NCBI GenBank assembly: GCA_041288095.1
Contig: JBGGMJ010000182.1
Coordinates: forward strand, 861 to 64,860
Reading direction: 5' to 3'
DNA: 64,000 bases
From: Myxococcota bacterium
GTDB taxonomy: Bacteria > Myxococcota > XYA12-FULL-58-9 > JALHOP01
In this document: positions 27,134 to 56,355 of the stretch, piece by piece
How positions within the stretch are numbered: the stretch's first letter is position 1
How the letters are laid out: every line of letters starts with the position of its first letter
Made by a program: the position numbers and the translations under genes
The notes under the pieces: model-generated
Seen by the model: only the letters and a program-made list of their open reading frames with translations
Told to the model about the DNA's origin: nothing
The model's database searches: none

Positions 27134-28636
27134 ATGACCGCCGCGAAGAAGCGCACCATCCTCATCGCCGACCCCGACGTCGAGGTGGCGCGCTCGCTCA
27201 AGAGCGCCTTGCAAGAGCAGTACGAGATTCTCGTGGCGCGCGACGGCTCCAAGGCTCTCGAGACCTCGGTGCTCCGCTATCCCGATCTCATCCTCTTCTA
27301 CCGCAACTGTCCGCTCATCGGAGCGACCCAGTTCCTGCGTATCTTGCGCACCAATCCGCGCACCGAGGACATTCCCCTGATCGTCCTCTCCGACGAGGCG
27401 GTGTCGGCCGGCAGCATGCCGGGCTTCCTCGAGGGCATCCTCGTCAAGCCGCTGAACCTCGACGAAGTGCGCTCGCACATCGCGCAGGTCTTCCGCCGTT
27501 CCGACGCCGTCCGCGAAGTCGGACACGAAGCCGGGAGCGTGAGCGGCAACCTCGAGCAGATCTCGATGGCCGATCTCCTGCAAGTCTTCTCGATGAACCG
27601 GCGGACGGGTGTCTTGCAGCTGCAGGGCGGGGGCACCTCGGCCGAGGTCTTCGTCAACGAGGGTCGCATCGAAGAAGCGATCTGCGGGCTGACGCGCGGT
27701 GAGAAAGCGCTCTACCGCATCATCGGCATGGGTGAAGGGCGCTTCTCGTTCGTGCCGGGGCGCCAGTCTCCGGTGCGCTCGCTCGACGCCACGACCGACG
27801 CGCTGCTCATCGAGGGCATGCGCCAGAGCGACGAGCTCGAGCGCATGCGCGACGAGCTGCCGCCGCCGGCCGCCCGCATCGAACAGGCGATCGCGCCCGA
27901 CGAGATCCCTCCCGGCTTGCACCCGGTCAACGCCGAGATCATGAGCCTGCTCGGGAGCGCGAACACGAACGCGATCCGAGTGACCGACGTCGTCGACCGC
28001 ACCAAGGCGACCGACCTCGACGTCTACCTCGCCCTGCGCTCGCTACTCACCGCGGGCTTCGTACGCATCGTCGATTCGGACGGCGGCGTCGACGGCAAGA
28101 GCCTGCTCACCCAGGACGAGTCCTTCGAGCTGCGCTCGCGCCTACGCCGCATCGGCCTGCCGCCGAGCTTCATGGGCGCGCCGAAGTTGGTGCTGGTGAT
28201 GACCGATCCCGCGGACGTGCGCGCGACCGCCGCGATGATGCAGCGCTGGAGCGAGTTCGAGCCCGCGTTGGGTGGCGAGCTCAAGAGCTTCGGCAGCCTC
28301 GGGATCCTCACGCTCGATCATGGCCTGGTCGTGGATGTCGTGGCTCTGTCGGCCGATCCCGCGCTGGCCCCCTTGGGTTACGCTTTGTCCGCGGGTGCCA
28401 TCGCCGCCATAGTCATGGGACCGGCCGACGAGCTCAACGGAGCGCTCCGCTTGGTCGAAGTGGAGCGTCGCGCCTCGGTTGTTTTCCTGCGCTTCCCGGG
28501 ACAGCCCGCTATCGCGGATGCACCGCGGCGGACCATTTTACCCGTGGCGAGCCTCGCCGAGGCCGAGCTCAGGCAAGCGGTGCAGACGGCCCTCCGGCAC
28601 GGTGCGACCGCCGACCTGCGCGGAATGACGATCTAG
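27134..28636 (+). CDS. response regulator with a DUF4388/PATAN-like domain
   Basis: The ATG at 27134 gives MTAAKKRTILIADPDVEV. REC: DLILFYRNCPLIGATQ...ILVKP. GNLEQISMADLLQVFSMNRRTGVLQL is the typical DUF4388 opening. The C-terminal half is unassigned. Confidence 0.65.
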   Translation: MTAAKKRTILIADPDVEVARSLKSALQEQYEILVARDGSKALETSVLRYPDLILFYRNCPLIGATQFLRILRTNPRTEDIPLIVLSDEAVSAGSMPGFLEGILVKPLNLDEVRSHIAQVFRRSDAVREVGHEAGSVSGNLEQISMADLLQVFSMNRRTGVLQLQGGGTSAEVFVNEGRIEEAICGLTRGEKALYRIIGMGEGRFSFVPGRQSPVRSLDATTDALLIEGMRQSDELERMRDELPPPAARIEQAIAPDEIPPGLHPVNAEIMSLLGSANTNAIRVTDVVDRTKATDLDVYLALRSLLTAGFVRIVDSDGGVDGKSLLTQDESFELRSRLRRIGLPPSFMGAPKLVLVMTDPADVRATAAMMQRWSEFEPALGGELKSFGSLGILTLDHGLVVDVVALSADPALAPLGYALSAGAIAAIVMGPADELNGALRLVEVERRASVVFLRFPGQPAIADAPRRTILPVASLAEAELRQAVQTALRHGATADLRGMTI

Positions 28637-33053: not shown

Positions 33054-33869
33054 CTAGCGCGCGATCATCTTGCGCAGCGCCTCGTGAATGCGCTCGCGCA
33101 CGCCCAGGTCGAGCGGCGTGTTGTGCAAAGCCTCGGGGCGGGTGACCAGCGATTTCTTGCCGGCGTAGGCTTCGAACACGAGCTGCTGGTACTTCGGTCG
33201 CACGACCTCGTCTTTGCTCGCGCTCACGAAGAGAGCGGGGCACTTCGTGGCACGCGCGTTGCTGACACTGTCCAGCGTGTCGGGAATCTGACCGGCAACC
33301 TGCTTGGCCATGATCCAGAGGTTCCACCAACCGAACTCGCCCACGATGAGCTCGCGGAGCGCCGGTGGATTGACCAGAATGACGCCGGCGGCGGCGCGGG
33401 TCGCCGAGACGTGCAACGCCGCAGTGGTCCCGAGGCTTGTGCCAATCAGCACGATGGGTTTGCCTCCCGCGACCGACTCTAGATGGTCGAAGGCAATGCC
33501 GGCGGCGCGCGCAACTCCCACGAGTGATGCGGGCCCCGAGCTCATGCCGAAGCCGGGATAGTTCACTGCCCAGAGCTCGATACCGAGATCCGCGTAGGTC
33601 TTACCCTCGCTCGTCACCCAGCGGTCGGCGAGATCGGCGTTTCCATAAAAGCGGAGGGCATATGCTCGCGCGTCCGGGTGCGGCACTTGCCAGAGCTCGA
33701 CGGACGCGTCGGGTTCGCCGACGAGGTGACGCTTCGCGGGGGGCGCGGCGCCCTCACTCGGCTGCGGAAAGATGACGAGCTTGTCGGCGAGGGACACGCA
33801 GGACGGGATGATAGCGCAGAGGGCGACGTAGCCCAGCACTATCGGGCCGCAGCGAAAGATCCAGCGCAT
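33054..33869 (-). CDS. alpha/beta-hydrolase fold protein, membrane-anchored or secreted
   Basis: 271 aa with a hydrophobic N-terminus, the nucleophile elbow GTSLGT, and a late His (PEALHNTP). It is the last gene of a three-gene minus-strand unit. Confidence 0.65.
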   Translation of the reverse strand: MRWIFRCGPIVLGYVALCAIIPSCVSLADKLVIFPQPSEGAAPPAKRHLVGEPDASVELWQVPHPDARAYALRFYGNADLADRWVTSEGKTYADLGIELWAVNYPGFGMSSGPASLVGVARAAGIAFDHLESVAGGKPIVLIGTSLGTTAALHVSATRAAAGVILVNPPALRELIVGEFGWWNLWIMAKQVAGQIPDTLDSVSNARATKCPALFVSASKDEVVRPKYQQLVFEAYAGKKSLVTRPEALHNTPLDLGVRERIHEALRKMIAR

Positions 33870-33910
33870 GGTGCCTTATGCGTCGAGGCAGCGCGGCGGT
33901 GCAACTCGAG

Positions 33911-34852
33911 TCAGGCTTCCGAGAGCTTGTGACGCAGCCATTGCGCTTCGGTGTAGGCCAGCGCCTTGTTGCGCGGCACCGTCCCGTTGAACAAACGCCG
34001 CACCGCGTCGGCGCGGATGGCGTCGCGCTGCGCCGGCTCGAGAGCGTCGATGGCGTTGACCAGCTCGCGGGTGAGCGGCGAGAAGCCGTCTTTCCCGGTC
34101 TCGACGGCGTTGATGGCGTCGATGACGCGGGCATGACGCTGGGCCAGCTCACGGGCGGGCGCGTCGCCGAGTCCCTCGTCCGCCATCGCGGTTTCTAGGA
34201 TGGCCTTCACACCGTCGGTGAAATAGACCTCGCGTCCACGCAGGTTGACGAGTCGCTCCCTGGCGAGCTTGCCGATGACCGACCGCTCGAGTGGACGCTC
34301 GATCGCCGCGTGTCGGAGCTCCACGAAGCCTTGGATGTGATCCTCACCAAGCTCGGCGAGGCGCACGTTCTCCTTGTGACGCAAGAGGAAGCTCTTGAAT
34401 GCGTACCACGCCGAGGTCGCGGAGGCGGCGCCGACCGCGACGGCCATGCCGACCGCATGAGCGACGTCGCTCCCCCAGGAGCTGCTGTGGACGTGATGGA
34501 AGCGCCCGCGGCCAAAGGCTCCCGGGACATAGTCCCCCGGATTCGGAGCGCCGACCGCGTAGTAGGTGCCTGCGGCGAGTAAGCCGATCGTCGCGTAGGC
34601 GGCCGCGCGCTGGATCGGGGAGATATTGATCCAAAACGTCGACGCGTTTTTGCCGAAGGGCCCCGTGGCGCGGTCGAGGATGTCTTTCGCGCGCGTCTCG
34701 ACGGTCTTGATGGCGTCGACGCCGACTTGCATTTGCGCGAGCGTCAGTGGCGGCTTGGTGACGGCCGGCGGCTGCCCGTCCGCGATGGCGAGCGGCATCA
34801 TGGCGTGCTGTTCGCTTACGGCAGTCGCGGTCATGCGTTCGCGAGACATCAT
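33911..34852 (-). CDS. orphan protein, tandem paralogue 1 (central Gly/Ala-rich hydrophobic region)
   Basis: 313 aa, collinear by eye with the upstream 312-aa ORF (LTLAQMQVGVDAIKTVETRAKDILDRATGPFGK vs LTLASMQKAVDNLQSAESRARSILTQATRPFGK). The C-termini ...LFNGTVPRNKALAYT and ...LFDGVRPRNKNIPYT also align. Confidence 0.55.
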   Translation of the reverse strand: MMSRERMTATAVSEQHAMMPLAIADGQPPAVTKPPLTLAQMQVGVDAIKTVETRAKDILDRATGPFGKNASTFWINISPIQRAAAYATIGLLAAGTYYAVGAPNPGDYVPGAFGRGRFHHVHSSSWGSDVAHAVGMAVAVGAASATSAWYAFKSFLLRHKENVRLAELGEDHIQGFVELRHAAIERPLERSVIGKLARERLVNLRGREVYFTDGVKAILETAMADEGLGDAPARELAQRHARVIDAINAVETGKDGFSPLTRELVNAIDALEPAQRDAIRADAVRRLFNGTVPRNKALAYTEAQWLRHKLSEA

Positions 34853-35787
34853 GCTTCGTCACCACTCCCGAGCTTCGCGGCCAGCTTGTGGGCCGTCGTG
34901 TACGGGATGTTCTTGTTGCGCGGGCGGACCCCATCGAAGAGGCGCTCGTGGATGTCCTTGGTGATGGCGCGCTCAACCGGGGGCAAGGCGTCGAGCGCGC
35001 CGAGCAATTCGTTGACGCGCGCCAAGATGTCGCCGCGATTGGTCTCGATGTCGCGTATCGCGGTGATGACCGCGCCGTGCCGGGCCGCCTCTTCACGCGC
35101 GTTCGCGTCGCCGATACCTTCGTCTTGCTTGGCTCTTTCGAGAGTGGCCTTCACCTCGGGCGCGAACCAGACCTCGCGAGTCTTGAGCGCCTCGAGCGTT
35201 TGGCGCGCGACCTTGCCGATCGCTGCCCGCTCTAGCGGACGTTCGGCCGCTTCTTGGCCGAGTTCGACGAAAGGCCGCAGGTGCTTGCCCTCGAGCAGAG
35301 CGTCGGCCATGCGCGTTTTCTCCCGGGCGACGATGCGCTCGATCGCGATTTTCACGCCGACCGTCGCGCTGGCGCCGGCGGCCAGGGCACCGCCAAGGAT
35401 CAGGCCGGCATCTTTGTAGTACCAGCTATCCGCCACCCGATGCGTCCAGCCGTAGTAGTTGCTGTAGGCGTAGGCGGAGCCGGCAGGGAAGTACTTGTAG
35501 GCGATCAAGGCAGCAGCGGTGAGGCCCACCGCGCCGGCGACCGCCAGGGGAGCGGGGCTGTCGGCCAGCCTGGTGAACCACGTCTGGCCATCCTTGCCGA
35601 AGGGGCGGGTGGCTTGCGTCAGGATGCTCCTGGCGCGGCTTTCGGCCGACTGGAGGTTGTCGACCGCCTTTTGCATGGAGGCGAGGGTCAGGGCCGGTTT
35701 GACGACCAGCGGGTTCGTCCCGAGCAAATCGAGCTTGGGAATGGCTTGGGCGTGGTCCACGGGCTGCGTAGCGATCGGCATGTCCAT
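34849..35787 (-). CDS. orphan protein, tandem paralogue 2
   Basis: 312 aa with a 4-nt overlap with paralogue 1 and the same architecture. It is divergent from the BMC-P genes across a 140-bp intergenic region. Confidence 0.55.
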   Translation of the reverse strand: MDMPIATQPVDHAQAIPKLDLLGTNPLVVKPALTLASMQKAVDNLQSAESRARSILTQATRPFGKDGQTWFTRLADSPAPLAVAGAVGLTAAALIAYKYFPAGSAYAYSNYYGWTHRVADSWYYKDAGLILGGALAAGASATVGVKIAIERIVAREKTRMADALLEGKHLRPFVELGQEAAERPLERAAIGKVARQTLEALKTREVWFAPEVKATLERAKQDEGIGDANAREEAARHGAVITAIRDIETNRGDILARVNELLGALDALPPVERAITKDIHERLFDGVRPRNKNIPYTTAHKLAAKLGSGDEA

Positions 35788-35927
35788 CCAATGTCTCGCT
35801 CTTGTTGCCCATTTTTCGTACGCTTGCGGCCGCTGTTGCCCCCATCTCGGGTGACAGGCCGGTCAAGCGAGGCAAGGCGAAACGGCTCCTTGTCGACCCG
35901 GGGCCTGCGTGCTACCTCCTGCGACCG

Positions 35928-36221
35928 ATGTACCTCGGGGTCGTCATCGGTACCGTAGTGGCCGAGCAGAAGGCCGAAGGCCTGAACGGCCGCACCTTCT
36001 TGCTGGTGCAGCCGGTCGACGAGCAACAAACGCCTCTCGGCCCCATGCAGGTTGCCGTGGACACGGTGAAAGCCGGTCCAAAGGACCTCGTCGTCCTGGT
36101 CGGCTCGCGCGAAGCGGCGCTCGCCCTCGACCCGTGGTTCGTCCCGGTCGACGCGGCCATCGTCGGTATCGTCGACGATCTCAATATCGCCGAAGCCAAG
36201 CGGAAGGCGGCCAGCCGCTGA
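35928..36221 (+). CDS. bacterial microcompartment vertex (pentamer) protein, BMC-P, EutN/CcmL family
   Basis: 97 aa from the ATG at 35928. MYLGVVIGTVVAEQK...LLVQPVDE...AVDTVKAGPKDLVVLVGSREA...PVDAAIVGIVDDL follows the EutN/CcmL pattern (N-terminal GxVV, mid AxDxVGAG-like, C-terminal IxGIVD). Confidence 0.8.
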   Translation: MYLGVVIGTVVAEQKAEGLNGRTFLLVQPVDEQQTPLGPMQVAVDTVKAGPKDLVVLVGSREAALALDPWFVPVDAAIVGIVDDLNIAEAKRKAASR

Positions 36222-36490
36222 TGCGAGTTTGTGAAGTCATCGGCAACGTCGTCGCCAGCGCCCATCACCCCGCCTACGATGGCGCCAAGCTCCTCGTCGT
36301 GCAGCCGCTCGATGACGCCGGCAACAAGGTCGGCGCGTCTCTTTTGGCGCTCGATCGCGTCCAAGCTGGTGTCGGCGATCGCGTCCTCATCATGGGCGAA
36401 GGCAACGGTGTCCGCCAACTCATGGGCAAGGACGCCGGGCCGATTCAGGTGCTCGTCGTCGGCATCGTCGATGCCGTGGAGACAGCGTGA
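36221..36490 (+). CDS. bacterial microcompartment vertex protein, BMC-P, EutN/CcmL family (second copy)
   Basis: 89 aa. [16 protein letters not shown]...LLVVQPLDD...[21 protein letters not shown]...VVGIVDAVE. Its ATG overlaps the stop of the first copy (TGATG). Confidence 0.8.
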
Positions 36491-37227
36491 CCATGCATCC
36501 CACTCAGACCCGCCGCGCGCTCGAAGATCAGATCGTCGCTTTCAGCCACCGGCTCCACACCGCCGGCTGGGTCGCGAACCACGACGGCAACATCACGGTG
36601 CGCCTCGCCAGTGATCGCTTTCTCGCGACGCCGACCGGCGTGTCGAAAGCCGCGGTGTGCCGCGATCAGCTCATCGTCGTCGACGGCGCCGGCAAGGTGG
36701 TCAGCGGCTCATCGAAGCCCTTCAGCGAGATCGAGCTCCATCTCTACGTCTACCGCCATCGGTCCGATGTGCGCTCGGTCATGCACGCGCACCCACCGAC
36801 CGCCACTGGCTTCGCGGTCGCCGGCATTCCCATCCTGACGACGATGATGGCCGAGCCGGTGGTGTCGCTCGGCGCCGAGATCCCACTCGTGGCTTACGCG
36901 CGGCCGCGCACGCCGGAGGCCACCGGTAACCTGGCGCACGCCATCGAGGACGCCGACGCCGTGATGCTCGCGAACCACGGTGCTCTCTCGTACGGCCCCG
37001 ATCTCGAGACCGCTTATCTGCGCATGGAGCTCGTCGAGCACCTCGCCAAGATTCAACTCGTCGCCCGCCAAATGGGAGGCGCCCGCGAGATCCCGAGCGG
37101 CGACGTGAACAAGCTGCTCGAGTCGCGCACCAACGCGGGGCTTGGCCGTGCCGGCCGCAATCGCGTACAGAACGACGATCGGACCGTGATCGTTCGCATG
37201 GCCGCCGGAGCGAAAGCCAATGGCTGA
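36487..37227 (+). CDS. class II aldolase/adducin-family protein (L-fuculose-phosphate-aldolase-like)
   Basis: 246 aa with [24 protein letters not shown] (metal-binding His cluster) and [11 protein letters not shown]. Its GTG start overlaps the preceding stop (GTGA); an alternative ATG is at 36493. Confidence 0.8.
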
Positions 37228-38137
37228 GATGGAGCAACTGGTCGACGAGATCGTCAAGCGCGTGCAGAGCCGTCTCGGCGGTGCGCCGGCACCCAAGCTC
37301 CAGCTCGCCGGTGATCGCTGCGAGACCGGCGTCGGCCCGAATTGCGACACCTGCCGCGGCTGCCACGTGAAGCGCCCCAACGACGTGCGCAACATCGTCG
37401 ACCTGGGCGCCGCCCGCATCGCCGCCGGCATCGGCCACGACAGTCCTCCCTCCGACATCGCGCCGCTCATCGACCACACGCTCCTCAAGGCCGACGCCAC
37501 CAAGGAAGAGCTCAAGAAGCTGTGCGAAGAGGCCAAGAAGTACGGCTTCGCGACCGTCTGCGTGAACCCGACCAACGTCCGCTATTGCGCGGGTCTGCTC
37601 GAGGGCTCCTCCACCAAGGCGATCGCCGTCGTCGGCTTCCCGCTCGGTGCTTCGGTGCCGCAGGCGAAGGCGTTCGAGGCTCGCCAGGCCGTCCGCGATG
37701 GCGCACAAGAGATCGACATGGTCATCAACATCACGGCGCTCAAGGCGAAGGACTACGCCACGGTGCTCGATGACATCTGCGCCGTCGTCGCGGCCTCCGC
37801 GCCCAAGCCGGTGAAGGTGATCCTCGAGACCGCCATGTTGAACACCGAGGAGAAGATCATTGCCTCGTCGCTCTCCAAGGTCGCCGGGGCCGCGTTCGTG
37901 AAGACGTCGACGGGCTTTGGCCCCGGTGGCGCCACCGCCGAAGACGTCGCGCTCATGCGGCGCATCGTCGGGCCGGAGATCGGTGTCAAAGCCTCGGGCG
38001 GCGTGCGTACCACCGAAGACGCGATGAACATGATCGAAGCAGGCGCGAACCGTCTCGGCGCGTCGGCGTCGGTCGGCATCGTCACCGGCACCGCGTCGAA
38101 GAGCGCCGGCAAGGCGAAGCGGGCGGGAGGCTACTGA
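37220..38137 (+). CDS. deoC: deoxyribose-phosphate aldolase with an N-terminal extension of about 75 aa
   Basis: The DERA core runs from about residue 78: [12 protein letters not shown]...GFATVCVNP...VKVILET...FVKTSTGFG (Schiff-base Lys region)...[10 protein letters not shown]. The extension is [19 protein letters not shown]...[15 protein letters not shown]. It overlaps the aldolase gene by 8 nt. Confidence 0.85.
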
Positions 38138-39015
38138 TGAGGAGCGCCCTCGCGCTCGCCATCGTAGCGCTCGGCGCAGCCTGTACGCCCACCGCTTCTG
38201 GAGGTCCGCAAATGCCGTTCAAAGCGCTGGTCGGTCCCGTCATCGTCGCGCATCGCGGCGGCTCGCTCGAGGCGCCCGAGAACACCATGGCGTCGCTCGA
38301 GCACGGAGTCGCCATCGGCGCCGACTGGCAAGAGCTCGACGTCACGCTCACCAAGGACAACAAGCTCATCGTCATCCACGACGATACGCTCGAGCGGACG
38401 ACCGAGGGCAGCGGCCAGGTCATCACCAAGAACCTCGACGAGCTGCGCAAGCTCCACGCCGGTGACCCCAAGTGGGCCGACTACGTGGTGGAGCGGCTCG
38501 CCAAGATGGGTATCGAGGCGCCGAGCTTTGCCGGGAAATATCCCAACGAGCGCTTGCCGACGCTCGAGGAAGTCCTGCGCATCCCGAACGCTCGCCTCAT
38601 GATCGAGATGAAGGCGCACCCCGATCCGAAGGCGTTGGCGTTCGCGACCGTCGACGCCGTGCACGCGGCCAACATGGGCGGCCGCGTCGTGCTCGCGAGC
38701 TTCGAGGCGCCGTTGCTCTTGCAAGCAAATCTTCGTGACTCGAGCATGCCGCTACTGGGCTTGGCCGAAGACGTGAAGGGCATCGAAGCGATGCTGCGCC
38801 TGCCCATCAGCGTGCTCGGCGTGAGCGTCGAGCTCGCTGACGAAGCACTGCGCCTGACGCCCCAGGGCATCGCCGTCTGGATCTGGACGGTCTACACTCC
38901 GCAGGAGGCCCGCCGCCTCGCCGAGCTCGGCGTCCACGGCATCATCACCGACGCGCCCACCACGGTGCTCGCGGAGATCCGCAAGGAGCCCACCGACTTG
39001 ATGGTCGAACGGTGA
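38137..39015 (+). CDS. glycerophosphodiester phosphodiesterase lipoprotein
   Basis: Its ATG overlaps the deoC stop (ATGA). It has the lipobox LGAAC. GDPD motifs are VIVAHRGGSLEAPENT, ELDVTLTKDNKLIVIHDDTLERTT and MIEMK. Confidence 0.8.
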   Translation: MRSALALAIVALGAACTPTASGGPQMPFKALVGPVIVAHRGGSLEAPENTMASLEHGVAIGADWQELDVTLTKDNKLIVIHDDTLERTTEGSGQVITKNLDELRKLHAGDPKWADYVVERLAKMGIEAPSFAGKYPNERLPTLEEVLRIPNARLMIEMKAHPDPKALAFATVDAVHAANMGGRVVLASFEAPLLLQANLRDSSMPLLGLAEDVKGIEAMLRLPISVLGVSVELADEALRLTPQGIAVWIWTVYTPQEARRLAELGVHGIITDAPTTVLAEIRKEPTDLMVER

Positions 39016-39686
39016 AGCAGAGCCCGGTCATCCTGGCGCTCGACGTCCCGGAGCGCGCTCGCACGCTCGAGCTGGCGAAGCTGCTCGGCCCCGAGGTCGG
39101 CATGGTGAAGCTCGGCCTCGAGAGCTTCGTCGCGCACGGTCCGGACCTGGTGCGCGCCGTCGTCGGCATGGGGCTGCCCGTTTTTCTCGACCTGAAGCTC
39201 CATGACATCCCGCGCACCGCGGCCGCGGCCGCGAAGATGGCGCTCGATTTGAAAGTAAAGCTCCTCACCGTGCACGCGAGCGGTGGCGCCGAGATGGTGC
39301 GTGCCTGCCGCGAAGCAGTCGGTGACGCCCTGCACCTCGTGGCGGTCACCGTGCTGACGTCGCTCGGTGACGATGATCTCGCTGGTGTCGGCTTCAGTGG
39401 ACAAGCGGCGACCGTCGCGGCGCGTCTCGGCAAGCTCGCCATCGACAGCGGCGCCCACGGCCTCGTCTGCAGCGCGCTCGACCTGCCGGCTCTCGCGGGC
39501 ATTGGCGGTACGCGCGTGGTGCCGGGAGTTCGTGCGGCCGCCGGCGCGATCCACGATCAGAAACGCGTGGCGACGCCCGCGCAAGCAATGAAAGCCGGCG
39601 CGACCTGGCTCGTCGTCGGCAGACCAATCCTCGAGGCGTCCGATCCCGTCGCAGCGGCGCGGGCCATCAACGCGGAGTTAGGGTAG
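39012..39686 (+). CDS. pyrF: orotidine-5'-phosphate decarboxylase
   Basis: 224 aa with ILALDV, MVKLGLE, FLDLKLHDIPRT and VVGRPI. Its GTG start overlaps the GDPD stop (GTGA). Confidence 0.85.
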   Translation: MKQSPVILALDVPERARTLELAKLLGPEVGMVKLGLESFVAHGPDLVRAVVGMGLPVFLDLKLHDIPRTAAAAAKMALDLKVKLLTVHASGGAEMVRACREAVGDALHLVAVTVLTSLGDDDLAGVGFSGQAATVAARLGKLAIDSGAHGLVCSALDLPALAGIGGTRVVPGVRAAAGAIHDQKRVATPAQAMKAGATWLVVGRPILEASDPVAAARAINAELG

Positions 39687-39693
39687 GGCCCCC

Positions 39694-40440
39694 ATGAAGG
39701 ACGCCGACCTCATTTACGGCCGCCATCCGGTCGGCGAAGCTCTGCGCAGCGGCAGCCGTCCCATTCAGAAGCTGCTGGTGGCCGAAGGCGCGAGCCTCGG
39801 TGACCTCCTCGAGATCGCCAAGCAGCGGAACATTCCCGTGCAGAAGGTGGGTCGCGGCAAGCTCGACTCGATGTGCGGTGGCGCACAGCACCAGGGCATC
39901 GTCGCCATGGTTCCCGCTTTTGCGTACAGCGACATCGACGATGTTATTGAAGCAGTTATGGAGCGAGGCGAGGCGCCGCTCATTCTCGCCTGCGATCAGA
40001 TCCAAGACCCGCACAACCTCGGCTCGCTGGCCCGCAGCGCTCTCGCCCTCGGCGCGCACGCGGTGGTGTTTCCCAAGGACCGAGCGGTCGAGGTCACCGG
40101 CACCGTCGTCAAGACGTCCGCCGGGGCGACTGCCCACCTGCCGATGTGCCGAGTAACCAACCTCCGCACGACCCTCGACCAGCTCAAGGAGCGTGGGCTT
40201 TGGGTCTACGGGGCGTCCTCCGACGAGGGCTCTCCAATCGCGGACACCGATTTCACGCGACCCTGCGTGATCGTCGTGGGGTCGGAGGGCGACGGTATGC
40301 GTCGGCTCACGATCCAGACCTGCGACGCGCTCGTACACATACCTATGAGCGGAAAATTGGGGTCACTGAATGCGGCGGTTGCCGGGGGCATCGTGCTATA
40401 CGAAGCTTCGCGACAACGTCGCATCCAAGGAAAGTCATGA
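39694..40440 (+). CDS. rlmB: 23S rRNA (guanosine-2'-O)-methyltransferase, SpoU/TrmH family (RlmB-like)
   Basis: 248 aa. An N-terminal SpoU_sub_bind-like segment (IYGRHPVGEAL) is followed by SpoU motifs DQIQDPHNLGSLARSA, VVGSEGDGM and IPMSGKLGSLNAAVAGGIVLYE. Confidence 0.8.
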   Translation: MKDADLIYGRHPVGEALRSGSRPIQKLLVAEGASLGDLLEIAKQRNIPVQKVGRGKLDSMCGGAQHQGIVAMVPAFAYSDIDDVIEAVMERGEAPLILACDQIQDPHNLGSLARSALALGAHAVVFPKDRAVEVTGTVVKTSAGATAHLPMCRVTNLRTTLDQLKERGLWVYGASSDEGSPIADTDFTRPCVIVVGSEGDGMRRLTIQTCDALVHIPMSGKLGSLNAAVAGGIVLYEASRQRRIQGKS

Positions 40441-41864
40441 GAGCATTGCTGCGCATCTTCCTCGTTGCCCTCGTCGCCGCGTTCAGCGCCCAGACTGCCG
40501 CTGCAGCGGACGCCGTTTTGGTGACCGCCCCGCGCGGCGTCCCGGCCAAGCTCGGGAATGCCTTCGTCGACACGGTGAAGAAGGGCGTCGCCGGCAAGGT
40601 CATCAAAGGCCCGGCGCTCAAAGTCAGCAAGATGAGTGACCGCACCCAGGCGCTCACCCAGGCGTGCACCGCCAAGCGCACCGGCTTCGCCGTCGATGCG
40701 GCGGTCGAGAAGAAGAGACTGACCGTCATCGTCATCTCCGCGAACGGCGACCTCGTGTTCGAGAAGGCCGCCGCCTACCCGAAGGCGCCCGCCAAGCAGA
40801 GGGCGGTCCTCCTCGAAGCCGCCAGAGGCGCGGCCGCGGCCATCAAGGCGTCCGCTCCAGCGCCCTCACCGACCCCAGCTCCGGCTCCCACCATGCCGGC
40901 CACGCCCACCGAGCCCGCAACCACGCCTCCCGCCGACGGTACAGCCACCGCCGATCCTTTCTCAGCCGGCGCCGCGCCGCCGTGGATGGCGACCCAACCA
41001 AGCGCCCCCAAGAGCGCCGAGCCGTTGCCGACGACACAGACGCAGACCAGCAGTGAAGCCGCGGCGAGTGAGCCGACGAAGAGCAAGTCGAAACGCGACG
41101 GCGGAGGCCGCGGTGAATTCCGCATCGCCATCGGCGCCCTCGGCGGCGGCTCCGGCTACAAGGAGCACATCGACACCTCGCGTGATCAAGGTGACCGCGA
41201 CGTGAAGATCTCGCTCGCACCGCACTTCGGTGGTCAGCTGGAGCTCGAGCACGCCGTGGGCTTCCGCCTGACGGCGGTGGTCGCCAAGCAGAAGGCGACG
41301 CTGCAGCCCGACATCACCGACCCGCAGGACATCGACATCGATCAGCTCATGGCCTCCGGCCGCATGTCGCTCGCTTTGACGGACGGCGACTTGCCCATCG
41401 CCATCGCCATCGGCGGCGGTTACGAGAAGCTCGACGCCACCGGTCAACCCGACATTCTCTGGGTTCCCTCGAGCAAGCTCATCGGCACCTTCGTTGGCGT
41501 CACGTTGTCGTCCGGCGACCTCACGACCGTCGGCTTCACCTTCGAGGGCGGCGCCGGCATCGTCCCCTGGGGTAAGCACACGCGCACCGCCGACACGGTC
41601 GAGCTGAGCTCACGCGCGCTCGGTGGCCAAGGTTGGCTACGCGGCCGCTATCAATTCCCCAAGGCGCTCGGCTCGAGCGCGGGCGTGTTCTTCGAGGCCG
41701 GCGCCAACCTCCGCTATCTGACGCTATCGCCCGGCAGCGTCGAGCTCCCCGCCGACGACGGCACGGTACGCACCAGCTCGCTGCCCGTGGGCGACGAGAA
41801 GAGCAACCGCTTCGACTACGGCCTTGGAGCGAGCATCGGCATCATGTGGCGCCCCGGCGACTAA
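40437..41864 (+). CDS. hypothetical secreted/outer-membrane protein with a Pro/Thr/Ala-rich linker
   Basis: The ATG at 40437 (ATGA overlap with rlmB) gives the signal peptide MRALLRIFLVALVAAFSAQTAAA. There is a central APAPSPTPAPAPTMPATPTEP linker. The C-terminal half is beta-strand-like and ends GASIGIMWRPGD. Confidence 0.5.
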   Translation: MRALLRIFLVALVAAFSAQTAAAADAVLVTAPRGVPAKLGNAFVDTVKKGVAGKVIKGPALKVSKMSDRTQALTQACTAKRTGFAVDAAVEKKRLTVIVISANGDLVFEKAAAYPKAPAKQRAVLLEAARGAAAAIKASAPAPSPTPAPAPTMPATPTEPATTPPADGTATADPFSAGAAPPWMATQPSAPKSAEPLPTTQTQTSSEAAASEPTKSKSKRDGGGRGEFRIAIGALGGGSGYKEHIDTSRDQGDRDVKISLAPHFGGQLELEHAVGFRLTAVVAKQKATLQPDITDPQDIDIDQLMASGRMSLALTDGDLPIAIAIGGGYEKLDATGQPDILWVPSSKLIGTFVGVTLSSGDLTTVGFTFEGGAGIVPWGKHTRTADTVELSSRALGGQGWLRGRYQFPKALGSSAGVFFEAGANLRYLTLSPGSVELPADDGTVRTSSLPVGDEKSNRFDYGLGASIGIMWRPGD

Positions 41865-43858
41865 AGCACGCGCGCTCGGCCCGCCTTCTTCGCCGCGTAC
41901 AAGCGTTCGTCGGCAACCCGTAGGAGCGCATCCGCCGTCTCCCCATCCTCCGGAAACGCCGCGACTCCGCCGCTGAACGTCACCTGAAACGTCCGCCCGT
42001 CGTCCGTATGAAACGGCATCCCGCCGAGCTCGTCCAACAAGCGCGTCACCACCTGCCGGGCCATGACCACCGGCGCGTTCGGCAACGCCACGACGAGCTC
42101 TTCGCCGCCCCAGCGCCCACGCACATCCTCGGTCCGCAACCGCGTCGCCAAAAGCTGCCCGGTCGTCGACAACACGCGGTCGCCCACGAGGTGCCCGTAG
42201 CCGTCATTGATCTTCTTGAAGTGATCGAGATCGAGCAAACAGATCGACAGCGGTCTGCTATAGCGACGGGAGTCGGCGAGCCTGCCTTCGAGCTGTTCCA
42301 GGAACGCTCGCCGCAGGGTGAGCCCGGTCAAGGTATCGCGGTCGGCTCGATCCCGTAGGAGCTTGGCCCGCTCGACCCGGACCTCCACGCGCGCCAACAG
42401 CTCCTCGTTGACCACGGGCTTCACCAGATAGTCGTCGGCGCCGGCCCGGAACGCGGCGATACGCTGCTCGACCGCGCTCTGGGCCGTCAGAAAGAGCACC
42501 GAAATATGCCGCCACTTGGCGCTGGCTCGGATCTGTTTGCAAAGCTCGAGCCCCGTCACCCCGGGCAGCAGCATATCGAGCAGCACCAGATCTGGGTTCA
42601 GCTCCTCGAGCATTGGAAACAATTGGGTCGGATCGGTGATGTGCCGCGCGGCGATACCGCGCGGACCCAAGACAGCGAGCACCAGCTTGCCGAACGTGGT
42701 GTCGTCGTCGACCACCAGCACGCGCGTCTGCTGCGGCCGTTGCTGTAACAAGCGTCCGAGTGCCGCCGCGATGATGTCGGCGCTCGTGTCCGACGGCATG
42801 CGCAACGAAGCACCGGCATGCACCGCTTGCGCCTCGGGAACCGCCCCCATGCGAGGCTCGAGCAGGGCAATGACCACGTTCTCCGCGCCGGGTACCGTGC
42901 GAAGCCCGCCGGCGATGCGGCTCAGCATCTCGTGCGGTCGATTGGTCATGTCGACGAGCACCGCCGCCGGTATCCGCGCGCGCGCTCGCTCAATGAGGTC
43001 CTTGGGCTCGATGACGTGCACCACGGCGTACCCATGGGCGCGGCCATGGTTGACCAAGTCGCGTGCCTGTTCCGGTGCGCCCCCGACCATGATGACGAGC
43101 TCGTTCGGCATGGTGCGGCTCGTCGGTAGAGCAGGGGGCTTCTGCGCCGGCGGCGCGGCGGTGCTGGATGAAGGCAAGCGCTTCAACGCCTGTTCGATGG
43201 TGGACCAGGCTGCTTTCGCGGCCTCCACCGGCAGCCCCTTCGCGGCAATCAACGCGTCTTCGATGAGCGCGGCGGCTTCGCTCACGGGGTGCAAACCGTG
43301 GGTCCCAGCCGAGCCGCGCATCTTGTGCGCACGCTCGCGCGCGTCGGCCCAAGCGGACTGATCGGCCGGGGCGCCGCGCGTCTTACCTACGGCAGCCGCG
43401 AGCTCGGCCACGTGCTGTGGGAGTCCCGCGGCATATTCGTCGCGGATCGCTTCGAGCTCGGCGGCGAGGTCGGCGTCGGCCGCGGGCGCCGCCTTGGCGC
43501 CGAGCAGCGCATCGATTTGCGCCACGAAGGCCCCGGCTTCGAGCGGCTTGTGAGCAATGAGCGCGACCCGCAGCTCGTCATTGAGTCGCTTGAACGAGCT
43601 CATGTCGCGATAGAACGAGGACACGAAGATCACCGGCACGTCCGGTTGGACCTGGCGCAGGCGTGGGATCCACAGGAGACCGTCCCCGTCGGGTAGGAGG
43701 CCGTCGATGATCACGGCCTGCGGTTTGTGCTGGCCGAGCGCCGCGATGCCTTCGCGACCGCTCGCTGCCTCGACGACAGTGTGGCCGCGCTTGGCGAGGG
43801 CCGCGACGATGATGCGCCTGAACTGAGCGTCGTCATCGACGAGCAGTACGAGGCTCAT
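41861..43858 (-). CDS. multi-receiver response regulator with an HPt-like segment and a GGDEF diguanylate cyclase domain
   Basis: 665 aa. REC1: VLLVDDDAQFR...IIDGLLPDGDG. HPt-like helix with His: RERAHKMRGSAGTHGL. REC: VLVVDDDTTFG...LLDMLLPGVTGLE...YLVKP. GGDEF domain with I-site-like RTED and GGEEL. Confidence 0.8.
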   Translation of the reverse strand: MSLVLLVDDDAQFRRIIVAALAKRGHTVVEAASGREGIAALGQHKPQAVIIDGLLPDGDGLLWIPRLRQVQPDVPVIFVSSFYRDMSSFKRLNDELRVALIAHKPLEAGAFVAQIDALLGAKAAPAADADLAAELEAIRDEYAAGLPQHVAELAAAVGKTRGAPADQSAWADARERAHKMRGSAGTHGLHPVSEAAALIEDALIAAKGLPVEAAKAAWSTIEQALKRLPSSSTAAPPAQKPPALPTSRTMPNELVIMVGGAPEQARDLVNHGRAHGYAVVHVIEPKDLIERARARIPAAVLVDMTNRPHEMLSRIAGGLRTVPGAENVVIALLEPRMGAVPEAQAVHAGASLRMPSDTSADIIAAALGRLLQQRPQQTRVLVVDDDTTFGKLVLAVLGPRGIAARHITDPTQLFPMLEELNPDLVLLDMLLPGVTGLELCKQIRASAKWRHISVLFLTAQSAVEQRIAAFRAGADDYLVKPVVNEELLARVEVRVERAKLLRDRADRDTLTGLTLRRAFLEQLEGRLADSRRYSRPLSICLLDLDHFKKINDGYGHLVGDRVLSTTGQLLATRLRTEDVRGRWGGEELVVALPNAPVVMARQVVTRLLDELGGMPFHTDDGRTFQVTFSGGVAAFPEDGETADALLRVADERLYAAKKAGRARVL

Positions 43859-50126: not shown

Positions 50127-50570
50127 ATGGCTAAGAAGGTCTCCGGTTTCATCAAGTTGCAAATCCCCGCTGGTAAGGCGAACCCCTCGCCGCCGGTCGG
50201 TCCTGCGCTCGGTCAGCACGGCGTGAACATCATGCAGTTCTGCAAAGAGTTCAACGCGCGCACCCAGAAGGAAGGCGACATGATCATCCCCGTGGTGATC
50301 ACCGTCTTCAGCGACCGCTCGTTCACCTTCATCACCAAGACCCCGCCGGCGTCGATCCTTCTCAAGAAGGTCACCGGCATGAAGACCACCAAGAAGCCGG
50401 GTGCGGGCTCGAAGGAGCCCAACAAGACCAAGGTGGGCAAGGTCACGATGAAGCAGATCGAAGAAGTGGCCAAGCAGAAGATGCCCGACATGAACGCCAA
50501 GGACCTCAAGGGCGCCATGAACAGCATCATGGGTACGGCCAAGTCCATGGGCCTCGACATCGTTCAGTAA
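50127..50570 (+). CDS. rplK: 50S ribosomal protein L11
   Basis: 147 aa: [44 protein letters not shown]. Confidence 0.95.
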
Positions 50571-50593: not shown

Positions 50594-50634
50594 GGCCCGC
50601 TGACGGTACGCCGTTGGCGGGCTTTTTTCGTTTT
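50594..50634 (+). terminator. rho-independent terminator immediately after rplK
   Basis: GGCCCGCTGACGG-TAC-GCCGTTGGCGGGC hairpin (with G-U pairs) followed by TTTTTTCGTTTT. It starts 24 nt after the rplK stop. Confidence 0.65.
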
Positions 50635-50668
50635 GCCCTGGCTGGACGAGCCGGCGGATAAGGCGCCT

Positions 50669-51559
50669 ATGCGAAGCGCTCGCTCATTGCTCACGACCGC
50701 GATCCTGGCCGCTCTGACGTGGGTCGGTGTTGCTTGCGCGACGCGCGATGACGAGCCCGTCGAAGCGCACCCCGAGGCCGCGGCACCGGCGCCTTCGCCG
50801 ATCGTACCGCCCGCGGGCGCGATCGATCCAGCGCCCGAGCCGGCGACTCCACCTCCGGAGGACGACGACTCGCCGACCCTCGTCGCGTACCCACCCCCGC
50901 GAATCGAGAACGTCGTTGTACGCCGAAGCGGTCAGGAGGTGCGTCTCGTCGCGCGCGTGAGCCGCGTCCGTGGCGCCAGCAGGTACGATCTGCAGGTGGC
51001 GAAGACCCTCATGTTCGAGCCACTTCTCGCGGAGGGCTCCACGTCGGGGCGCTCTGTGAACGTCGGACCGCTCCCGCCGGGGATGTTCTTCGTCCACGCG
51101 CGGGCCGTCGGGGCTGCTGGTGAAGGACCCTTCGGCGATGTGCGCGTCGTTCACGCTCACAAGGGCGGTCTCGCGAAGCTACGGCCGGTGACCGAGGAAG
51201 ACGCGGCAGAGCCGATGCTCGCTGGGCTCCCCCCGGAGAAGACCGCCGGGGCGACGCCCGCCGCGAGTGCCGTGCTCATCGCGACGCCCGAGGCCAAGCC
51301 GAACCTCGCCCGCTTGGGTCCGCTACGCCAGCGCTACGAGCAGCTGCAGCGCGAGCTCGCCGAGGTCGAAGGGCTACGACGCGAAGTCGAGGCCAAGGTC
51401 GCGGAGCTGCGAGGACGCCTGGCGGGTGCCAAGGCGAAGAGCGCGGCGACGCTCCAGGGTGACCTCGAGGTCCTCGAGGCGACCCGCACGCAGCTCGATC
51501 GCGAGATTACCGCTGGCCTCGCCGAGCTCGACCGCATGCTGGCTGCTTCGACGCCCTGA
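50669..51559 (+). CDS. hypothetical lipoprotein with a Pro-rich linker, an Ig/FN3-like middle and a C-terminal coiled coil
   Basis: The ATG at 50669 gives MRSARSLLTTAILAALTWVGVAC (lipobox). There is a Pro/Ala-rich stretch. The C-terminus has heptad-like LRQRYEQLQRELAEVEGLRREVEAKVAELRGRL. The track ORF starts at TTG 50633. Confidence 0.5.
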   Translation: MRSARSLLTTAILAALTWVGVACATRDDEPVEAHPEAAAPAPSPIVPPAGAIDPAPEPATPPPEDDDSPTLVAYPPPRIENVVVRRSGQEVRLVARVSRVRGASRYDLQVAKTLMFEPLLAEGSTSGRSVNVGPLPPGMFFVHARAVGAAGEGPFGDVRVVHAHKGGLAKLRPVTEEDAAEPMLAGLPPEKTAGATPAASAVLIATPEAKPNLARLGPLRQRYEQLQRELAEVEGLRREVEAKVAELRGRLAGAKAKSAATLQGDLEVLEATRTQLDREITAGLAELDRMLAASTP

Positions 51560-51621
51560 TCCGACGCGGTGTCAGGTCCAGACCGGACAACGGGCTCGAT
51601 GGTCAGGCCGATACTCGCATC

Positions 51622-53346
51622 ATGAATCTCGATAAAGCGTCGGGTGTTGTTCTTCGCGGAACAACGCGGGTGGGTGGCGAGGCGCGGACGGACGCGGGGA
51701 CTAGCGACAAGCCCGGTGGTCCGGCGCTCCATACGGGGCGCAATCCGGCCGCGGACGGTATCGTCCGTGTTGGCGGACAGGCGCCGGCGACCCAGCTCAG
51801 CATGCTGACTCGGACGACCTTCGATCGCGCGGTGACGCTCGTCGCCGTCTTCGGCAAGACCAGCGACTTCGCCGACCTCAAGTTCGACTTCACCGGCGAC
51901 GCCGGCCAGGCCCATCGCGCTCGGGCCGCGGTTAGCGATGCCTTGCAGGGGTGGTTTCCGCGCTGGGAGAACCCAGCGTTCAAGTTCCGTCAGATTGGTG
52001 AGTCCATCTGCAAGGCGATCACCGGCTCCTTGGCCTGGAACGTCGCCGCGTGGCCGTGCAGCTTGTTCGAGGTCCGCTCGTACCCCTTGCGCGGGCTCGA
52101 CACCGGACGGACGAGCGCTGAATACATCGCGGCGGGGCTCCAGCTCCTGACCGCTCTAGCGGAGCGCGACCTCGTCGACCTGAAGGCGATCGTGAAACCA
52201 GACGACGTCAAGGCGCTGGTTGCCCTGGTCGGCGCCGGGCGAGCCATGCGCGACCAGAGTCCGACACCGGCGCTCGCGAGGTCATTGCCATTCTTGCGGG
52301 TGAGCGCCGCCAAGCCGTCGGCTGGCGCGTCCGCGACCGCCTTCGAGGATCACTTCCGTTCACGCGGCATCCAGGCACGCGCCGCGGCGGCGGACGTGGT
52401 CACCTCGGCCGTCGCGGTCTTGCAAGTTGTGGCGCCCGAGGCTCTCGCCGCGATCGAGACGACGGTTCGTCCGGCAACCCCGGCCGAGCGCTTGGCCGTC
52501 GACACCACGCTCTCCGCCGGTGGCATCGAGGCGCTGGCTCACGTGATCGAAGCCAACAAGCGCGGCGGCGGTTACTTCGACACCACCGGCCTACGCATGG
52601 CCATCGAGCGTTTGGTGATCGAGGGCTTCGTCGACACTCCCAGGTCGCGTGAGCGCAATGCCGAGGCGGGGCGCGAGCTCATCGGCGCTTACATCGGCGC
52701 GCTCAAGACCGTTAGAGGTTCTCTCGCGTACACCAGGCGCGAGGACGCAACGCGCGCCCAGACCCTGTGCGACGAGCTTGCGACCTTGTGCTCGGCGCTA
52801 CGCGACGGCCAGCTCGGCGCCGCGGTCACCGCCAGGATGCACGCCTTCGAGTATCCGCAGAAGGTCGCGCAGATCGCAGGCTCGATGCGCGAGCGCTTGC
52901 AGCCCCTCGCAGCTGGCGGCGATGCAGACGCGACGGCGACGCTCGCGGCGGTCGAACGCTTGAGCGCCACATTCTCCGCGATCGAGCCCCTGGTACACGA
53001 TTTCACCGGCTTGTCGTCCGAGGCACGGCTCAAAGCCGTTACCAAGCTGCTGGGCGGCTACGTGGACAAGCTCGGTCCGCTAGAGCGACAGCTGCGTTAC
53101 GAGCCCGCGGCGGGCGAGGGGGAAGCGCGCAAGCTCTGCGAGGACCTCGGCAAGCTCCTCCAGTCGCTCGCGGGCGACCCCTACGTCGGCGACCTGCGCA
53201 AGCATGTCGACACGTCGGGGATAGGGCGTCAAATGCGCCGGCACATCGATCGGATCATGGACCAGGTGCAGGACACCCCAGAGGCCGTCGAGAACGGCAC
53301 GCTGGCCGCGCTCACCCGCCTGCGGGCCACCCTCATGGACTGGTGA
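51622..53346 (+). CDS. orphan all-helical protein, tandem paralogue B (574 aa)
   Basis: Collinear with the next ORF (N-termini MNLDKASGVVLRG...HTGRNPAADGIVRVGG...TRTTFDRAVTLVAVFG vs MTIHKASVVVRGR...HTGCNPATDGTVRKSG...TRTTFERAVTLAMVFG). It has an extra C-terminal repeat unit. Confidence 0.55.
   Translation: MNLDKASGVVLRGTTRVGGEARTDAGTSDKPGGPALHTGRNPAADGIVRVGGQAPATQLSMLTRTTFDRAVTLVAVFGKTSDFADLKFDFTGDAGQAHRARAAVSDALQGWFPRWENPAFKFRQIGESICKAITGSLAWNVAAWPCSLFEVRSYPLRGLDTGRTSAEYIAAGLQLLTALAERDLVDLKAIVKPDDVKALVALVGAGRAMRDQSPTPALARSLPFLRVSAAKPSAGASATAFEDHFRSRGIQARAAAADVVTSAVAVLQVVAPEALAAIETTVRPATPAERLAVDTTLSAGGIEALAHVIEANKRGGGYFDTTGLRMAIERLVIEGFVDTPRSRERNAEAGRELIGAYIGALKTVRGSLAYTRREDATRAQTLCDELATLCSALRDGQLGAAVTARMHAFEYPQKVAQIAGSMRERLQPLAAGGDADATATLAAVERLSATFSAIEPLVHDFTGLSSEARLKAVTKLLGGYVDKLGPLERQLRYEPAAGEGEARKLCEDLGKLLQSLAGDPYVGDLRKHVDTSGIGRQMRRHIDRIMDQVQDTPEAVENGTLAALTRLRATLMDW
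52339..52512 (+). repeat. 174-nt highly conserved segment shared with 53931..54104 (intragenic, between the tandem paralogues)
   Basis: Hand alignment: gccttcgaggatcacttccgttcacgcggcatccaggcacgcgcc... vs gccttcgaggatcatttccgttcacgtggcatgcaagcgcgcgcc.... The encoded 58 aa are about 84% identical (AFEDHFRSRG[I/M]QARAAAADVVTSAVAVL...). Confidence 0.7.
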
Positions 53347-53357
53347 AGGCGCCAACC

Positions 53358-54671: not shown

Positions 54672-54808
54672 CCCGCCGACATCGCGGCGCGCTCGAATAG
54701 CGGTGATACGCCGCTGTCACGATGACAGGGTCATCCAACGCGCGGTTGAGCCGTTCCACGAGGCTCGAGCGACTCACCGCATAACGACGAACGCTACGGA
54801 GCTCAACG

Positions 54809-56188: not shown

Positions 56189-56233
56189 GTGGGCCGCGCG
56201 GGTAAGCAAAGGTAGGTGTTCGCGCCTTCCCGA

Positions 56234-56273
56234 AGCCCCTCCTGGCCAAAAGCGTAGGCCAGGAGGGGCTTTC
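56234..56273 (+). terminator. perfect 14-bp stem-loop downstream of the TSP3 gene (probable terminator)
   Basis: AGCCCCTCCTGGCC (56234-56247), a 9-nt loop, then GGCCAGGAGGGGCT (56257-56270), followed by TTC. The U-tract is short, so termination efficiency is uncertain. Confidence 0.5.
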
Positions 56274-56355
56274 GAGCAGGCCGCGAAAAGTTGAGCTGAA
56301 CTTGGCGGCCCGAGCGACACTCAATGTCGTGGCCGTCCTACGCGATCAGAAGAGC

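Follow-up and report, generated by a model that had tools for sequence, protein, structure and literature searches.

The shell of Haliangium ochraceum is a standard structural and engineering model for bacterial microcompartments (BMCs); the native function of the organelle is still called enigmatic. The subject of this report is a small locus that is likely to belong to an organelle of this kind: four consecutive genes, for two BMC-P vertex proteins, a class II aldolase and a deoxyribose-phosphate aldolase (DERA), at positions 35928-38137 of a 64,000-nucleotide stretch of DNA (hereafter the window) from a metagenome-assembled genome that NCBI labels as Myxococcota bacterium (assembly GCA_041288095.1, contig JBGGMJ010000182.1). 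The window takes up nearly all of the source contig, which is 65,895 bp long.

The catalogue of BMC loci by Sutter et al. 2021 (PMC8217296) defines 41 loci of the HO (H. ochraceum) type; in HO type I, according to its description, the genes for the organelle are divided over a main and a satellite locus. According to the same source, a module of two BMC-P genes and a PF00596 aldolase gene (P-P-PF00596) is the hallmark of type I satellites and of type II main loci, and some HO genomes encode, at a separate genomic location, a PF01791 enzyme with an N-terminus resembling an encapsulation peptide (EP). It also suggests for the HO organelle a role in nucleic acid catabolism like that of SPU (sugar-phosphate-utilising) organelles, and places the HO aldehyde dehydrogenase (AldDh) closest to those of SPU5 and SPU7. 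The DERA that is the signature enzyme of SPU loci has been characterised biochemically (PMC11585597), and SPU-type loci with both a DERA and a class II aldolase exist in deep Myxococcota (2025 preprint, PMC12747264).

The locus described here is probably a satellite of a catabolic microcompartment of HO type I, with an EP-tagged DERA as its probable cargo. A first-pass annotation had already proposed a satellite of this kind, pointing to dispersed shell genes in H. ochraceum; these are on record in the literature (Sutter et al. 2021, PMC8217296), and the locus, when set against that catalogue, fits the HO type I satellite. Both the layout and the proposed DNA-sugar-degrading role are already published, and the window is a supporting example. 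The new increment is small: the DERA gene is joined to an HO-type satellite across a lineage, and to a deo-like cluster in two genomes.

Vertex proteins and the satellite module

The genes of the block, and two features within the last of them, are as follows.

35928-36221, + strand: BMC-P vertex pentamer protein P1, paralogue class 'Pb' (97 aa, PF03319 E=2e-24)
36221-36490, + strand: BMC-P vertex pentamer protein P2, paralogue class 'Pc' (89 aa, PF03319 E=8e-24)
36487-37227, + strand: class II (FucA/AraD-superfamily) metal-dependent aldolase (246 aa, PF00596 E=2e-46)
37220-38137, + strand: DERA (305 aa, PF01791 E=4e-15, TIGR00126)
37223-37279, + strand: predicted EP, DERA residues 2-20 (amphipathic helix, AlphaFold2)
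37319-37366, + strand: Cys-rich motif C34-x7-C42-x2-C45-x2-C48-H49 in DERA, a possible metal site

The two small open reading frames (ORFs) were first recognised by their EutN/CcmL pattern, and this identity is secure: P1 and P2 score 86.3 and 84.4 bits against a PF03319 cut-off of 25, cover profile positions 1-83 of 83, and have matches among the solved BMC-P structures, that of the H. ochraceum pentamer (5V74) being one of them. They are only 35% identical to each other and represent different classes. Each has its counterpart in the pairs of related loci (L083-L091 are the contexts of aldolase homologues found by look-up; L015, L018 and L030 come from a genome collection). P1 shares 51-82% identity with the leading BMC-P of the pairs in L083, L085, L088, L089 and L090, and P2 shares 43-92% with the second member of the pair in related loci.

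The most informative relative is L090, a complete locus that reads BMC-H, BMC-P, AldDh, BMC-T, BMC-P, BMC-P, aldolase, which in catalogue terms is HO type II. Its last three genes are orthologous to the window module (51% identity for P1, 43% for P2, 59% for the aldolase), and its BMC-H has as best natural match the H. ochraceum protein HO-5815 (152.6 bits). The remaining BMC-P of L090, adjoining BMC-H and AldDh, belongs to a third class, which is 30% identical to P1 and gives no BLAST match to P2. The best match of this third-class protein is the 5V74 BMC-P of H. ochraceum (100.6 bits), against which P1 and P2 score no higher than 40-44 bits. A six-frame tblastn search of the whole window with the third-class protein found no counterpart, and on sequence grounds the window codes for two of the three members of a BMC-P triplet. 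With two adjacent BMC-P genes of different classes, a PF00596 aldolase, no BMC-H, a module shared with a locus of HO shell composition, and a host within the Deltaproteobacteria/Myxococcota, the locus has the character of an HO type I satellite.

All four genes of the block are under purifying selection, with ratios of nonsynonymous to synonymous substitution (dN/dS) of 0.05-0.19 relative to L083, a 93%-identical relative; the values for P1 and P2 are 0.19 and 0.05. P1 ends in a short basic tail rich in Lys and Arg (AEAKRKAASR, 36192-36218), which is longer in L083. Disordered Lys/Arg-rich tails on the pentamers of archaeal microcompartments are reported to bind DNA (2025 preprint, PMC12747264).

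DERA and its N-terminal extension

The identities first given to the two enzymes hold for both. The DERA passes the TIGR00126 deoC equivalog model with 267.9 bits (cut-off 117.3), and solved DERAs, 6d33_A being the best match (E=1e-70), align with the whole of its enzyme domain (residues ~77-290). Residues D166, K199, K228 and K257 are invariant among 52 DERA homologues of 58-96% identity; K228, in the motif FVKTSTG, is the Schiff-base lysine. AlphaFold2, supplied with the alignment of these 52 homologues, predicts a TIM barrel at residues 77-290 with confidence (pLDDT) above 90.

Ahead of the barrel lies an N-terminal extension of 76 residues, consisting of an amphipathic helix, a linker and the Cys motif. 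In the AlphaFold2 model the helix spans residues 2-20 (pLDDT ~75) and is followed by a disordered linker (21-33) and a short helix (53-61). The helical hydrophobic moment of the first helix is 1.78, compared with 1.50 for the EP of PduD (its sequence entered by hand). DERAs encoded within BMC main loci (L010, L023, L061, L065 and L078) have homologous extensions built in this way, and the extension alone has a dN/dS of 0.10 relative to L083. By analogy with SPU-type DERAs, residues 2-20 are predicted to form an EP; in the SPU enzyme such an extension was likewise read as a putative EP, and its removal gave soluble enzyme (PMC11585597). The extension is easily lost in annotation. NCBI gives the protein as 235 aa (HSI02852.1 / MEZ0314262.1, otherwise identical to the window DERA), dropping 70 residues (37220-37429), whereas in ENA, where short contigs carry the same aldolase and DERA genes, the protein is called at its full length of 305 aa; the trimming of extensions is described as an annotation problem for SPU DERAs as well (PMC11585597).

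Within the extension, C34, C42 and C45 are invariant in the 52 homologues. Of the 73 extended DERAs in the genome-collection set, 52 contain at least three Cys in the extension; none of eight short DERAs has any. At least three are present in most extended DERAs of Myxococcota, Acidobacteriota and Firmicutes, two in the Melioribacter/Ignavibacteriales and Bacteroidota types, and none in short housekeeping DERAs. AlphaFold2, which does not model metals, assigns the Cys stretch no secondary structure and a pLDDT of ~50-56. The motif may bind a metal or an Fe-S cluster; no mention of it was found in the passages searched of the SPU paper (PMC11585597) or by term searches of the catalogue (PMC8217296). 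A DERA with the same helix and a CPGCDxxCAExC extension (at ~10001-10900) is also encoded at nine other loci, mostly labelled Acidobacteriota (L034, L037, L047, L051, L058, L060, L064, L072 and L077), which have no BMC-H or BMC-P gene within 10 kb. These enzymes may be cargo of ACI, the microcompartment specific to Acidobacteria, encoded apart from its shell genes.

A DERA with an extension of ~70 residues and an amphipathic helix is the universal signature enzyme of SPU microcompartments (PMC11585597), and this brings up the alternative that the block belongs to an SPU-type or fragmented (FRAG-type) microcompartment and not to the HO type, which would in principle be the same organelle with DERA as the defining enzyme. 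The PF01791 aldolase beside BMC-P in FRAG3, the affinity of the HO AldDh to SPU5 and SPU7, and the pairing of DERA with a class II aldolase in SPU-type loci of deep Myxococcota (PMC12747264) all lean the same way. The alternative is nevertheless considered unlikely: the module upstream of the DERA gene is the HO hallmark, orthologous to that of a locus with H. ochraceum-like shell proteins, and neither an RpiB-like protein (PF02502) nor an AldDh accompanies the DERA (57 ORFs of the window, with tblastn in addition for AldDh).

The class II aldolase

The assignment of the third product is less specific. NCBIfam models including those for FucA, RhaD, AraD, MtnB and ribulose-1-phosphate aldolase were compared, and the protein falls below the cut-off of every one (best score 119.6 bits, cut-off 251); for the equivalogs PRK06833 (FucA) and RhaD it scores 100.3 against 264 and 51.3 against 170. 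Because all of these cut-offs are missed, only membership of the PF00596 superfamily is established. The best solved relative is the FucA structure 4c24 (E=3.5e-21), and the catalytic Glu (E81) and the His ligands (H100, H102 and H164) align with FucA; the solved relatives FucA and 6btd, the latter deposited as a fuculose phosphate aldolase, score alike. In the public databases the protein is identical to HSI02853.1 / MEZ0314261.1.

The C-terminal tail has no EP-like helix of the form ..VxEEVxRxLRK, and no EP is recognisable in it. Among 120 homologues, 39 end in the EP-like helix, another 39 have no tail, and 42, including the window protein, have a tail of some other kind. The first figure agrees with the catalogue, in which about one third of HO aldolases have a possible C-terminal EP (PMC8217296). 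As far as can be judged from the proteins, the DERA is the only visibly EP-tagged enzyme of the two in this genome. The first-pass annotation had put forward both aldolases as an aldehyde-generating cargo and as a new hypothesis; the EP-like extension sustains this for the DERA, the aldolase has no such feature, and the idea itself is already in print (PMC8217296).

It could be argued that the class II aldolase is the true signature enzyme, cleaving a substrate like fuculose-1-phosphate or rhamnulose-1-phosphate as in PVM and GRM5, with the DERA as a chance neighbour. PF00596 enzymes do mark PVM and GRM5, and the catalogue lists such an enzyme for HO satellites (PMC8217296); the EP-like helix of roughly a third of the homologues would suit this role too. 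Here, however, the EP is on the DERA, the FucA and RhaD cut-offs are missed, the Pfam scans of the window record no gene of a fucose or rhamnose pathway, and the DERA gene, which is tied to nucleoside phosphorylases, recurs next to the aldolase gene in eight or more related loci. The proposal is regarded as improbable, and the DERA as the better candidate for the signature enzyme of the HO-type satellite.

Related loci and synteny

Within the genome collection, the closest relatives come from Kofleriaceae, Haliangiales and Myxococcota metagenome-assembled genomes (MAGs). The block P-P-aldolase-DERA recurs in L083/L084, L085/L086, L087 (with one BMC-P called), L088 and L091. The blocks of L083-L088 and L091 occupy the same chromosomal site as in the window, with FHA, acyl-CoA dehydrogenase or PP2C genes upstream; after the DERA gene, L083, L085, L087, L088 and L091 continue with genes for a glycerophosphodiester phosphodiesterase (GDPD), PyrF and a SpoU-type methyltransferase and then with tuf-secE-nusG-rplK, with insertions in some. 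L089 is a bare P-P-aldolase satellite, and L018 reads P-P-DERA...aldolase and adjoins a BMC-T gene. A type I main locus, Tdp-H-P-AldDh-T with one BMC-P and no aldolase, is present in L092, from another Myxococcales MAG.

In L015 and L030, P-P-aldolase-DERA lies at another chromosomal site and is followed by neither GDPD nor pyrF. Beyond one gene on the opposite strand come instead genes for a DeoA-type phosphorylase (PF00591, PF02885, PF07831) and a PNP/Udp-type phosphorylase (PF01048) (L015:11979-14116; L030:12209-14349). In 22 loci of the genome collection an EP-type DERA is directly followed by DeoA, usually together with PNP, and no shell genes are found within 10 kb. These loci (among them L001-L004, L006, L009, L013, L021, L027 and L045, with the nearest DERAs of Kofleriaceae and Haliangium) are mostly from Myxococcota, some being labelled Bdellovibrionota, Eisenbacteria or others. 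Because relatives pair EP-type DERAs with DeoA and PNP in this way, the tagged DERA is tied to the breakdown of deoxynucleosides.

The vertex pair itself varies among relatives. In L083/L084 a 563-aa gene on the opposite strand (L083:7842-9533, -) sits inside the pair; the gene calls of L091 merge the second BMC-P with the aldolase in a fusion ORF of 313 aa (L091:2186-3127, PF03319 + PF00596); and in L087 only one BMC-P is called (L087:9358-9998).

Genes absent from the window

Fifty-five likely genes were called in the window from codon-position GC content, and 57 ORFs were scanned with Pfam. No PF00936, PF00171, PduL or Pta match was found in these 57 ORFs, nor any PF02502 (RpiB-like) match. 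Six-frame tblastn searches of the whole window gave no significant match for BMC-H with three model proteins and one from H. ochraceum (sequences entered by hand), and none for BMC-H, BMC-T, AldDh or third-class BMC-P with queries from an HO-like main locus. The initial statement that shell hexamers, trimers and AldDh are missing from the 64 kb is thus confirmed by two methods; its extension to phosphotransacylase holds for the scanned ORFs, a few unscanned gaps lying outside that search. A search with HO-type BMC-H for a main shell locus of the source genome, or of L015 or L030, found none among the matches listed.

Such absences are what would be seen if the vertex genes were orphans, left behind in a lineage that has lost its shell, and if both aldolases were cytosolic enzymes of deoxynucleoside or deoxy-sugar catabolism. 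The untagged aldolase, the disrupted BMC-P pair of L083 and its reduction in L087, and the housekeeping genes all around fit this picture too. Yet both BMC-P are intact, full-length and under purifying selection (dN/dS 0.05-0.19). The same holds for the extension (0.10), for which no role is known other than in a compartment and to which the insolubility of DERA is attributed (PMC11585597), and in the catalogue the type I HO organelles do split their components between main and satellite locus (PMC8217296). Loss of the shell is the most doubtful of the alternatives, and a functioning HO-type satellite is the preferred explanation.

Junctions and neighbouring genes

Two further genes follow the block directly.

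38137-39015, + strand: GDPD (PF03009 E=2e-38)
39012-39686, + strand: pyrF (overlaps the GDPD gene by 4 nt)

The four genes of the block were originally described as a chain held together by start/stop overlaps, and all of these are in the raw sequence: TGATG at 36219-36223 between P1 and P2, GTGA at 36487-36490 between P2 and the aldolase, and an 8-nt overlap, ATGGCTGA, at 37220-37227 between the aldolase and the DERA. The second is optional, because public gene calls place the aldolase start at ATG 36493 (244 aa) and not at GTG 36487. The chain also continues past the DERA, whose stop codon shares TGATG (38135-38139) with the start of the GDPD gene, and on into pyrF, after which comes the SpoU-type methyltransferase gene. 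Because the chain extends into GDPD and pyrF, in a GC-rich genome, tight junctions are not specific for a functional unit, and the overlaps were rejected as proof of one. No promoter-like site was found at 35500-42000 and terminator-like sites occur there at the chance rate; Rfam and tRNA scans gave nothing near the block.

GDPD, although translationally coupled to the DERA gene, was considered and rejected as a component: its N-terminus is signal-peptide-like and the enzyme would be exported, inserted genes separate it from the block in L087, L088 and L091, and it is absent in L015 and L030. It is probably a neighbour, outside the organelle. Another GDPD gene (L092:8471-9253) lies ~4 kb downstream of the HO type I main locus of the unrelated Myxococcales MAG, which is probably a coincidence.

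Elsewhere in the window are housekeeping and signalling genes, which encode thymidylate kinase and a class II aminoacyl-tRNA synthetase, histidine kinases and GGDEF proteins, an FHA protein, an acyl-CoA dehydrogenase and a PP2C phosphatase. Three genes (33054-35787, -) lie between the PP2C gene and P1, one of them for an alpha/beta hydrolase; two adjacent ORFs of this group (313 and 312 aa) look alike and are probably paralogues, with no Pfam or NCBIfam match. In L088 the PP2C gene stands directly before the BMC-P pair. Downstream of the block is a tRNA-tuf-secE-nusG-rplK cluster, and the five tRNA genes of the window are all located there: four precede tuf and the fifth comes right after it. 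An insert of ~7.5 kb (50633-57917) separates rplK (50127-50570) from rplA (58047-58754), and contains ORFs without Pfam match, a thrombospondin-type-3-repeat protein gene (54809-56188) and a gene for a sigma factor of the ECF family (56302-56958). The genes rplK and rplA are adjacent in L085 and L091, and L083 has a foreign gene after rplK. Two small ORFs at 27712-28311 (-; 97 and 95 aa), with a GC content of 0.66-0.68 at the second codon position (GC2) and 0.94 at the third (GC3) and no Pfam match, may not be real genes.

Proposed role of the locus

In the proposed scheme, the two BMC-P pentamers would cap the vertices of an icosahedral shell, and the hexamer, the trimer, the third pentamer and an EP-tagged AldDh would be expected at a separate main locus of the genome. 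DERA is the likely signature enzyme, and we infer that it is packaged by way of its N-terminal amphipathic helix. Its substrate within the shell would be 2-deoxyribose-5-phosphate from deoxynucleosides. Cleavage would yield glyceraldehyde-3-phosphate and acetaldehyde, and the encapsulated AldDh would oxidise the acetaldehyde to acetyl-CoA, on the pattern of SPU-type microcompartments. The class II aldolase may enter the shell bound to DERA, or may be a cytosolic enzyme that cleaves a related phosphate of a pentulose or deoxy sugar.

Several observations weigh against this scheme. The 64 kb of the window contain no gene for a shell hexamer, a trimer or an AldDh, and the encapsulation of HO-type cargo is argued entirely by analogy. 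The class II aldolase has no EP. The BMC-P pair is not inviolable, being split in L083 and called as a single gene in L087. Nucleoside phosphorylase, phosphopentomutase and RpiB genes are all missing from the window. Finally, the block is co-directional with GDPD and pyrF and coupled to them, which appears unusual for an inducible catabolic organelle.

A more elaborate version can be imagined, in which the organelle is a two-aldolase metabolosome for (deoxy)pentose phosphates: the untagged aldolase would be brought into the shell in a complex with DERA, comparable to that of DERA and RpiB in SPU6, and the invariant Cys motif, as a metal or redox site, would control packaging or activity. This is speculative and considered unlikely. 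For the simpler scheme, the linkage of DERA to the satellite, and in two genomes to phosphorylases, adds weight to a guess already in print, that scavenged DNA is the source of deoxyribose broken down by the organelle. The locus is a useful corroboration and is suited to experiments; the overall picture is unchanged.

Comparison with known systems

The classical deo operon of E. coli has the order deoC-deoA-deoB-deoD. The loci of L015, L030, Kofleriaceae and Haliangium resemble it in linking the DERA gene with those for nucleoside phosphorylases of the pyrimidine and purine kinds. They differ from it in the putative targeting extension of the myxobacterial DERA, and the window differs further in having vertex genes and no phosphorylase genes.

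With the DERAs of SPU microcompartments, such as the Chloroflexi SPU6 enzyme (PMC11585597), the window DERA shares the catalytic residues and the ~70-residue extension composed of a helix and a poorly predicted segment. The gene of the SPU enzyme, unlike that of the window, stands in the main locus beside genes for AldDh and an RpiB-like protein, and the SPU DERA forms a complex with this RpiB-like protein (PMC11585597); the neighbouring enzyme in the window is instead a PF00596 aldolase. FRAG3 of the Calditrichaeota (Sutter et al. 2021, supplement) is similar in having a PF01791 aldolase of the DeoC type beside BMC-P, away from other shell genes. It belongs to another phylum, is described there with no class II aldolase, and has a shell set with two BMC-H.

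The closest resemblance is to the HO type I satellite of the catalogue (PMC8217296), in which adjacent BMC-P genes of different classes are followed by a PF00596 aldolase gene, far from BMC-H and in a myxobacterial host. The window departs from that description in the gene for a putatively EP-tagged DERA directly after the aldolase gene.

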